In this document: one piece after another, positions 36,356 to 37,798 of the stretch
How the letters are laid out: each line of letters opens with the position of its first letter
Position numbering within the stretch: position 1 is the first letter of the stretch
Assembly: GCA_965363355.1 (NCBI GenBank)
Contig: CBDTTM010000001.1
Location: 5,495-69,494 of the forward strand
From: an uncultured Selenomonadaceae bacterium
GTDB taxonomy: Bacteria; Bacillota; Negativicutes; Selenomonadales; Selenomonadaceae
Direction: 5' to 3'
DNA length: 64,000 nucleotides
Notes under the pieces: generated by a model
The model's input: only the letters and a program-made list of their open reading frames with translations
Database searches by the model: none
What the model was told of the DNA's origin: nothing
Translations under genes and position numbers: made by a program

Positions 36356-37798
36356 TTAAAATGGGATATTTCCGTGCTTTTTATGTGGACGAGATTCCCG
36401 TTTTGTCATCAGCATAGTTAAGGCCTGGATAATGTGGATACGCGTTTCAACAGGGTCTATAATTTGGTCAGTACAGGTAAAAATAGGCTTTTGCATATCT
36501 ATATGGGACAAAGATTTTTCTGGTATATGGTTTTTTTCTGCCTTTTGGCGGAAGAGGACAGCGGCTGAGCCAGCTGGTTCTTTTATTGCGATCTTAGCGC
36601 TCGGCCAAGCGAGTACGAGGTCTGCTCCAAGTTCTTTTGAACACAGTGCAAGATACGCAGCTCCATAAGCTTTGCGAATCAGCAGGCTGATTTTGGGCAC
36701 AGTGGCTTCTGCATAGGAATAGAGGATTTTGGTGCTGTGCCGGATAATGCCTTTATATTCTTGGCTTGTGTCTGGCAAAAATCCGGGAACATCAATGAAG
36801 GTTATTAAAGGCAAGTTGAATGCGTCGCAAAAACGGATAAAACGCGAAGCCTTGTCAGAAGAATTTATATCGAGGCAGCCGCCGATGGTCAAAGGCTGAT
36901 TGGCGATGATTCCTACGGATTGGCCATTGAAGCGAGCAAACCCGGTAATTAAGTTGCGGGCGTATAAAGACTGGACTTCATAGAATTGTTGGTCGTCGGC
37001 GGTAAGCTCAACCAAGTGCTTCATATCATAAGGGGAATCAATATTATCCGGCAGCACAGAATCAAGTTCTGGAATCAAGCGCATCGCAGAATCTTTTGTT
37101 GGTTTAATTGGTACATCTTCGAGATTATTGCTTGGTAAAAAACTTAAGAGCCGACGGATTTGGCAGATGCTGTCTGAGGGTGTAAGTGAGGAAAAATGAG
37201 CTGAGCCGGAACTTGTGTTGTGAGTGATCGCTCCACCTAGTTGTTCGGACGTTATCGTCTCACCAGTAATCGCTTTGATTGAAGCGGGTGAAGTCAAGAA
37301 CATGCTGCTTGCATCTTGCACCATATAGATGAAATCTGTAAGAGCGGGGGCGTAAACAGCACTGCCAGTACAAGAATTCAAGATAACCGATATTTGTGGA
37401 ACGACACCTGAGGCAAGTATGTGTTGATAAAGAAGTTTGCCATAGCCATTCATATTGTTGGCTGTTTTGTCGCTGGGAATATCGTTTAGCTTATTGATGC
37501 CGATGATTGGACAACGGGCCTTAAGGGCCATAGTAAATAGTTTACAGAGATTTTCGGTGTAGGATTCATCAAATACACTGTCTTCTACTGTGCAGTCTTG
37601 CGCATAGGCAAAAACAAGGCGATTTTCTATATTGCCATAGCCGGCAGCAAGACCAATAGGTGTTGCCGTGAAGTTTACGAAAGTTCCTTGATCAAAAAGC
37701 AGCTCCAAATACGTACTTGGGCAGCCTTCTTTTTTAGAAAGTGTTTCTTCAATACGTCGTACGGTCGTTTGCAAGAGCGGCACCTCCTGTGCGTGCAC
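36356..37798 (-). CDS. carboxyltransferase of the acyl-CoA carboxylase beta / MmdA / 12S family, with a degenerate N-domain
   Basis: Canonical C-terminal half ([50 protein letters not shown]). N-domain glycine motifs are replaced (see findings). Confidence 0.8.
   Translation of the reverse strand: [480 protein letters not shown]

Follow-up and report, generated by a model that had tools for sequence, protein, structure and literature searches.

The 64-kb window analyzed here, the whole stretch of contig CBDTTM010000001.1 presented above, encodes on its minus strand a carboxyltransferase homolog, hereafter alpha', in which nearly all of the glycines in the signature motifs of the N-domain have been replaced. 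Judged by homology and gene content, alpha' is predicted to serve as the carboxyltransferase-type component of a second operon for a Na+-translocating biotin decarboxylase, accessory and regulated by C4-dicarboxylates, in an uncultured Selenomonadales bacterium that is related to Propionispira. The comparisons described below show that in one narrow sublineage alpha alone went through a burst of substitutions, by which the CoA adenine pocket and oxyanion loop of the N-domain, and also a number of C-domain loops, were rebuilt. From then on, purifying selection has acted on both domains of alpha', on the biotin carrier and on the pump subunit.

The open reading frame (ORF) at 36356-37798 (minus strand) is intact, with GTG 37798 at its upstream end. 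An earlier note made on this DNA from its letters had given the protein as 480 aa. The ORF stands, but a start at TTG 37774, which yields 472 aa, is more likely: an AGGAGG lies 8 nt upstream of it, within the longer ORF, and the Logan and ENA gene calls of the relatives P0001-P0004 are also 472 aa, while the JGI call is 480 aa. End-to-end homology to acyl-CoA carboxylase beta subunits, 12S and MmdA, likewise claimed earlier, was well supported. alpha' matched Pfam Carboxyl_trans (PF01039) with 433.8 bits and E 1e-129 across residues 41-478 (numbered on the 480-aa ORF) and profile positions 37-493, and its best PDB sequence matches in phmmer were PCC-beta, MmdA-like and 12S chains (E 1e-132 to 1e-112). 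Against the mmdA model TIGR01117 it scored 550.7 bits, under the curated cut-off of 998.8. An AlphaFold2 model (predicted template modeling score, pTM, 0.81) aligned in Foldseek with template modeling scores of 0.81-0.85 to the PCC-beta/12S structures 7ybu, 1vrg, 1on3 and 1xnv, and in this model two tandem crotonase-like domains (N and C) are retained. Residues 398-429, the C-terminal lid, were unstructured and of low confidence, whereas in the canonical sister protein, modeled as a control, the same region was helical and confident.

Conservation was scored against 64 canonical MmdA sequences, with a conserved column defined as one at least 95% identical among them. alpha' differed at 105 of 286 conserved columns (37%), including 22 of the 42 conserved glycines. 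In the N-terminal half, 69 of 146 conserved positions and 15 of 26 conserved glycines were changed. The C-terminal half, which had been described in the earlier note as canonical, is not: 36 of its 140 conserved positions and 7 of its 16 conserved glycines were changed. Alignments of alpha' made with phmmer to 1vrg, 3n6r and S. coelicolor PccB had no gaps across the motifs, indicating that the motif glycines have been replaced and not shifted, and we found no characterized homolog with the same substitutions. The replacement of the N-domain motifs reported earlier, QDFTV(M/F)GGSxGE among them, is therefore borne out by these gapless alignments. When sequences were aligned with hmmalign to a hidden Markov model (HMM) of the canonical family, 8 of the 9 glycines in the four N-domain motifs were gone from alpha', the most extreme loss among the 150 best representatives.

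Motif 1 carries EDSV at the canonical GGS turn, with replacement residues that were fixed in all five variants aligned, and residues such as EDSxxDE were fixed across the variant clade. Motif 2 reads KLNDIPS in alpha', in a loop that varies between clade members and contains proline. The canonical ITGP is also missing, and the N-terminus has neither KQHxxGKxTARER nor the 16-residue HRCxNFG loop. Five conserved glycines in active-site loops have become Asp or Glu. In the C-domain, PGFLPGT is changed to PGFLPDT, RHGAK to RHSTK and AVMGP to AIKEP, and ERGFVD is gone; the change of AYGG(A/S)Y to AYGAAY that had been noticed before was seen again in the alignments, the canonical form there being AYGGSY.

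Solved enzymes indicate what the changed positions do. Oxyanion hole 1 of PccB is G182/G183, in the GPCAGG motif, and hole 2 is G419/A420. The equivalent dipeptides in other active enzymes are G169-A170 (hole 1) and G-G (hole 2) in AccD4, and A218-G219 (hole 1) and A447-G448 (hole 2) in MCC-beta. In M. smegmatis AccD5 bound to propionyl-CoA, the adenine is held by the backbone carbonyls of S116, A146, A148 and I150, and the thioester carbonyl accepts hydrogen bonds from A148 (the DSGGA Ala) and from G187. S116, A146, A148, I150 and G187 correspond to V67, N97, I99, S101 and S138 of alpha' (numbering offsets taken from the alignments). By this correspondence the adenine pocket, along with half of oxyanion hole 1, is built from the GGS and DSGGARI motifs, and it is these parts that were rebuilt in alpha'. 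The earlier statement that the DSGG backbone amides form the oxyanion hole is roughly right, as A148 of AccD5 bonds the thioester carbonyl, but hole 1 proper is the GPCAGG pair equivalent to PccB G182/G183.

The dipeptides of the two holes were altered less. Hole 1 of alpha' is G137-S138, where the backbone NH groups might still function, with a Ser that is undocumented at this position among the enzymes compared, and hole 2 is A372-A373, in which each position is Ala in some active enzyme while the A-A pair is absent from the cases cited above. Because Ala is tolerated there in active AccD4 and MCC-beta, these look like mild changes that are not clearly disabling. K103 of alpha' falls at the position of human PCCB E168K (E168 = E148 of PccB = K103, from the residue count in the alignment and an offset of +20), which is a common pathogenic allele (PMC7137301). 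Beyond the standing of E168K as a common pathogenic allele, we found nothing in the literature on the DSGGAR motif or the roles of PCCB residues.

The same substitutions were present in six independent assemblies (the window, L001, L087, L088, L002 and L097) at 81-100% identity. A word-indexed search of 5.8 billion clusters returned four relatives only, followed by a drop to ~53% identity, at which canonical MmdA appeared, and when the N-domain was run exhaustively with phmmer against 1.84 billion cluster representatives, that same cluster was again the only one returned. The variant is thus confined to one narrow group of uncultured Propionispira-like bacteria. Six unrelated carboxyltransferase homologs (P0171, P0256, P0192, P0266, P0282 and P0191) had lost 3-6 of the 9 N-motif glycines, and degenerate carboxyltransferase homologs may be a recurring class. 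Two long proteins with intermediate scores, P0005 (658 aa) and P0006 (606 aa), proved to be canonical MmdA with internally duplicated segments, most likely assembly artefacts and no intermediates in evolution.

Selection was estimated within the variant clade as the ratio of nonsynonymous to synonymous substitution rates (dN/dS) by the Nei-Gojobori method; some biotin carrier (gamma) and kinase pairs were excluded for alignment problems in the linker or in high-scoring segment pairs, and gamma was compared by alignment instead. The ratio for alpha' was 0.08-0.14, equal in the N- and C-domains, and that for the pump subunit beta' and for the MatC-like carrier of the same operon was 0.01. A pseudogene or an assembly artefact is ruled out by the intact ORF in six assemblies and a dN/dS of ~0.1. 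In gamma', the EAMKM biotinylation motif was conserved in all lineages and most differences lay in the linker.

The module that alpha' heads is ~8.2 kb long (29582-37774 of the window, minus strand) and adjoins tRNA-Pro(UGG). L089, a 2.27-Mb relative (GyrA 90%), has the same flanks with no module between its guanylate-kinase-like and PALP genes (L089 5685-7909), and because the site is empty there the module is accessory. The composition of the island matched that of the rest of the window (r = 0.98, same GC). In the sister taxa L083, L084 and L086 the same module was found at the same site, flanked by PALP, TauE, Ppx and gyrA, with a canonical alpha (P0007, P0040). In P. arboris (L091; FNZK01000010.1, 7460-19206), the order is histidine kinase, response regulator, mmdA, delta, gamma, beta, small peptide, MatC, u180 (a 180-aa protein), mutase, B12 subunit, MeaB and epimerase. 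Since this homologous module runs on into the mutase, B12 subunit, MeaB and epimerase, the module was ancestrally one for the conversion of succinate to propionate, and by analogy u180 and the MatC-like carrier probably have a role in succinate use. A MatC-like carrier, 30% identical, was also found downstream of the mmd operon of Succiniclasticum ruminis (L027, from 16857). That organism is an obligate succinate decarboxylator, and the position of the gene would fit succinate uptake by carriers of this type.

When the genes of the window and of the sister L083 were each compared with the P. arboris module, most had diverged to a similar extent: identities were 93 and 93% for beta, 87 and 85% for MatC, 58 and 63% for the kinase, 51 and 52% for u180, and 41 and 44% for delta. 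For alpha they were 51% in the window and 77% in L083. alpha is the only gene specifically accelerated on the variant lineage, while delta is fast everywhere. Identity to the P. arboris alpha fell from 90% for the alpha of the core cluster described below to 72-78% for canonical island alphas and 50% for the variant, a gradient indicating that island alphas evolve faster in general and that the variant is the extreme case. Other signals of descent were weak. In a neighbor-joining tree rooted at its midpoint, the long variant branch was drawn to the root and its sister group was uninformative, and of 50 residues that set the sister-lineage alpha apart, the variant shared only 5, no more than some unrelated sequences did. 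The orthology of alpha' consequently rests on synteny.

These same weak signals would be expected if alpha had not diverged in place but had been swapped in from an unsampled distant donor, as the variant is about equally far (50-54%) from all canonical sequences and has just those 5 of 50 sister-specific residues. We consider such a xenologous replacement improbable. No donor-like sequence turned up in 15 billion proteins, the gene occupies exactly the same position, between PALP and delta', the island does not differ in composition from the remainder of the window, and acceleration can already be seen in the sister island alpha, suggesting that the trend is an ongoing one.

With the P. arboris mutase as seed, a search led to two contigs, L094 (Logan DRR343902) and L095 (JGI 3300062287), that carry a core cluster. 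This cluster (L094 1-1595 and 8475-15755; the same on L095) encodes a succinate CoA-transferase family protein, the mutase with its B12 subunit, MeaB, epimerase, a small peptide, a biotin carrier and a fully canonical MmdA of 509 aa. A few genes upstream lies a second OAD_beta of 375 aa, 42% identical to the island beta'; it sits upstream of valS and adjoins a FlK-like thioesterase and a 49-aa peptide. The variant island occurred in exactly the two samples that yielded the core cluster, these being the samples amenable to such a comparison, and the tetranucleotide correlation of L094 with the window (r = 0.966) fell within that of chunks of the window with each other (0.957-0.983), compared with 0.93-0.94 for genus-level relatives. 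Co-occurrence in two samples and composition together strongly suggest that a core cluster with a normal MmdA lies in the same genome as the island. A different core cluster, on L092/L093 (reached via P0009), was rejected as the second mmdA of this organism, its tetranucleotide r with the window being just 0.80-0.81, and methylmalonyl-CoA mutase was dropped as a genus marker, being too conserved (88-93% across genera).

The earlier note had offered three options for alpha', namely that it uses a different carboxyl donor, that it needs a partner, or that it is non-catalytic. All three still stand and are sharpened by the present evidence. Not visible from the letters was that alpha' is a paralog in an accessory module, with positional orthologs in sister taxa that are canonical. 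The biotin carrier and Na+-pump subunits had been called intact, and so they are (OAD_beta 3e-143; EAMKM kept). As beta' and MatC evolve at a dN/dS of 0.01 and EAMKM is intact, the island pump is in use and needs a supplier of carboxybiotin, while the ancestral job of alpha' would be covered by the canonical core cluster probably present in the same genome. We tentatively favor the reading that alpha' itself still supplies carboxybiotin, from a thioester bound non-canonically and with a donor specificity that is altered or relaxed. With its ancestral job taken over by the canonical copy, alpha' would have had its acyl-CoA pocket rebuilt, yet would assemble with delta', gamma' and beta' and load CO2 onto biotin, taking the carboxyl group from a dicarboxyl thioester. 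Na+ would then be pumped out by the complex whenever an external dicarboxylate, for example succinate, is delivered through the MatC-like carrier and DcuSR.

Several observations weigh against this reading. The remodeled positions are those that hold the adenine and give one NH to the thioester carbonyl in AccD5, one of the changes mimics the pathogenic human PCCB E168K, and the five Gly to Asp or Glu changes in active-site loops should disfavor the poly-anionic CoA. The DSGGARIQE-equivalent loop and the C-terminal lid were the least constrained parts of the protein (dN/dS up to 0.26-0.40), and this relaxation, along with the unstructured lid of the variant model, also fits a dead active site. 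The co-residence of the core cluster, for its part, is drawn from two-sample co-occurrence and composition, on separate contigs; if it holds, the canonical alpha in the cell may supply carboxyltransferase activity in trans.

This is what the main alternative proposes: alpha' would be a non-catalytic pseudo-subunit, a scaffold or regulator, with carboxybiotin coming from the canonical alpha. We regard it as possible but doubtful. Such a protein could cap delta'gamma'beta', form mixed hexamers with canonical MmdA or tune the use of the island pump, and there is precedent in the plant BADC proteins, which are inactive paralogs of biotin-enzyme subunits that act as regulators. The loss of the adenine pocket and of the DSGGA NH donor, the E168K-like change, the relaxation of constraint at precisely the loop and lid of the former active site, the low confidence of the lid in the variant model only, the probable presence of canonical MmdA in the same genome and the other partly degenerate carboxyltransferase homologs in databases would all be in keeping with it. 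However, a dN/dS of ~0.1 in both domains means tighter constraint than a simple scaffold would be expected to show, many of the replacement residues (EDSxxDE) are themselves fixed, the island's own gamma' and beta' are under very strong selection, and the core cluster, which has its own gamma and beta, shows no evident need for cross-talk.

Two further readings concern the donor. If alpha' no longer used CoA at all, the carboxyl group could come from a free dicarboxylate or oxo-acid brought in by the MatC-like carrier, or from a thioester on another carrier, and a methylmalonyl-CoA enzyme would then have given rise, inside a single genus-level lineage, to a new class of Na+-translocating decarboxylase. 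It is specifically the CoA adenine pocket that has been rebuilt, with new acidic residues that are fixed; the operon encodes a DcuS-type sensor and a dicarboxylate carrier and has neither a CoA-transferase nor a ligase, and a paralog backed by a canonical copy is free for new functions. We nonetheless find this improbable, given that the sister taxa have an identical operon, carrier and sensor and yet a canonical alpha, so that operon context is no argument for a new substrate, and that the ligand triad of the sensor is unchanged. Decarboxylation of a free malonate-type acid would also lack the enolate stabilization that a thioester provides. At the other extreme, alpha' could be an ordinary methylmalonyl-CoA decarboxylase alpha subunit in which the substitutions are compensated and neutral. 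Its position as an ortholog within a module that descends from a succinate-to-propionate system, the purifying selection on it and oxyanion dipeptides within the range of active enzymes are compatible with this, as is the fact that active GcdA aligns to alpha' by its C-domain part only, implying that the N-domain may differ widely in active members. It is unlikely all the same: the 37% of positions that are at least 95% conserved among MmdA of several phyla and changed in alpha' were found changed here only among 1.84 billion representatives, the score is far under the mmdA model cut-off, and the acceleration is specific to alpha.

The features of alpha' and its module are collected in the table.

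Table. Features of alpha' and of the accessory decarboxylase module, with positions in the window.
Feature	Position	Strand	Remarks
alpha', carboxyltransferase-homologous subunit	36356..37774	(-)	472 aa; Pfam PF01039 and TIGR01117 mmdA matches
Shine-Dalgarno AGGAGG of the alpha' TTG start	37783..37788	(-)	read directly in the sequence
Motif 1 (canonical QDFTVxGGSLGE)	37565..37600	(-)	residues 59-70; canonical role: part of the CoA adenine pocket
Motif 2 (canonical DSGGA(R)I loop)	37466..37495	(-)	residues 94-103; canonical role: adenine pocket and NH donor to the thioester carbonyl
Motif 3 (canonical GPCAGG region)	37343..37378	(-)	residues 133-144; oxyanion hole 1 = G137-S138
AYGAAY (canonical AYGG(S/A)Y)	36653..36670	(-)	residues 369-374; oxyanion hole 2 = A372-A373
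Altered C-domain loops	36575..36787	(-)	PGFLPDT 36767-36787, RHSTK 36728-36742, AIKEP 36575-36589
delta', 85-aa anchor-like subunit	36065..36322	(-)	aligns with delta of sister taxa and P. arboris
gamma', 131-aa biotin carrier	35643..36038	(-)	Biotin_lipoyl 2.5e-21; start MNKMNL by alignment; EAMKM
beta', Na+-translocating carboxybiotin decarboxylase	34423..35580	(-)	OAD_beta (PF03977) 3.2e-143; TIGR01109 393.6 bits vs cut-off 190.6
48-aa membrane peptide, epsilon-like	34258..34404	(-)	conserved in all modules
MatC_N/CitMHS dicarboxylate carrier	32833..34209	(-)	Pfam 3.6e-29, 1.6e-18
u180, 180-aa protein	32253..32795	(-)	always after the carrier; in L083, L084, L086, L087, L091
Intrinsic-terminator-like hairpin, strong	32200..32243	(-)	19-pair stem; closes the alpha'..u180 transcription unit
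DcuS/MalK-family sensor kinase	30476..32119	(-)	NF008298 599.8 bits vs cut-off 520
DcuR-type response regulator	29767..30486	(-)	NF007750 3e-64
tRNA-Pro(UGG) at the island boundary	29582..29658	(-)	flanks the module

Among the remaining genes of the module, delta' scored under the 27-bit cut-off of OAD_gamma (E 0.003, 18.6 bits) and is homologous to the delta of canonical modules. beta' was 93-95% and the MatC-like carrier 87-92% identical to their counterparts in the sister taxa and P. arboris, and u180 had no Pfam or NCBIfam match. The kinase keeps RYSHPD and SLGESMR, the R..H..R positions of which we take to be the C4-dicarboxylate-binding triad of DcuS. No CoA-transferase or ligase gene was found among the Pfam and NCBIfam matches of the operon, and no methylmalonyl-CoA mutase, MeaB or epimerase gene in the 64-kb window. 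A perfect sigma-70 consensus promoter, TTGACA-17-TATAAT, is located at 29674-29702 (minus strand), directly upstream of tRNA-Pro.

The window covers the chromosomal replication-origin region, with dnaA, dnaN, recF, gyrB and gyrA. Its GyrA was 89-90% identical to that of metagenome-assembled genomes labeled 'Selenomonadaceae bacterium' and 86% to that of Propionispira. Alongside dnaA, the window also holds two ParB-family genes with ParA, jag, yidC, mnmE, mnmG and rsmG (2294-3986, 11588-12493 and 19299-20771), and the GC skew changes sign at ~20-22 kb. A ZMP/ZTP riboswitch at 9606-9683 (plus strand; 55.5 bits against a gathering score of 39) falls inside the 5' end of an AICARFT/IMPCHase-like ORF listed at 9502-10908, so the true start of that gene has to lie downstream of the riboswitch.

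Few features of biotin-dependent carboxylases and decarboxylases are as conserved as the motifs lost in alpha', and in humans mutation at several of the equivalent positions leads to propionic acidaemia. Together with the canonical positional orthologs in sister taxa, the variant forms a natural before/after pair for the carboxyltransferase active site. If alpha' is active, it would show what share of the CoA pocket an enzyme can do without, or in what way its donor specificity can be re-engineered; if inactive, it would offer a clear bacterial case of a pseudo-subunit within a Na+ pump that conserves energy. Pathway prediction based on mmdA calls for some caution as well, since such copies count as MmdA by homology yet miss the curated cut-off.

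Like MmdA of the Veillonella parvula/Propionigenium type (TIGR01117), alpha' has the family membership, the two-domain fold and the partners delta, gamma, beta and a small peptide, and it is the positional ortholog of canonical MmdA in the sister taxa and in the P. arboris module. Whereas canonical MmdA sequences of different genera share 85-92% identity, alpha' is only 50-54% identical to them and is without GGSxG, ITGP, the TARER region of the N-terminus and a number of glycines in the C-domain. S. coelicolor PccB, human PCC-beta, AccD5/AccD4 and 12S provided its best PDB matches in sequence and structure, and both oxyanion holes could be aligned with theirs; alpha' differs from them in the G-S and A-A holes and in the adenine segment, which reads V67, N97, I99 and S101, followed by a proline. 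GcdA and MadC/MadD are members of the same superfamily that likewise work with a biotin carrier and a pump of the OAD_beta type, but only the C-domain part of GcdA aligns to alpha' (E 1.9e-15). On the malonate-type model beta' scored 149 bits, with a cut-off of 597, and no acyl carrier protein or Mad genes are present here. Finally, alpha' resembles the degenerate paralogs of biotin enzymes (BADC; P0171, P0256, P0266 and P0191) in having kept the fold and lost the signature motifs with a canonical copy alongside, although BADC is a homolog of the biotin carrier and not of the carboxyltransferase, and the degenerate carboxyltransferase homologs have lost 3-6 of the 9 N-motif glycines where alpha' has lost 8.

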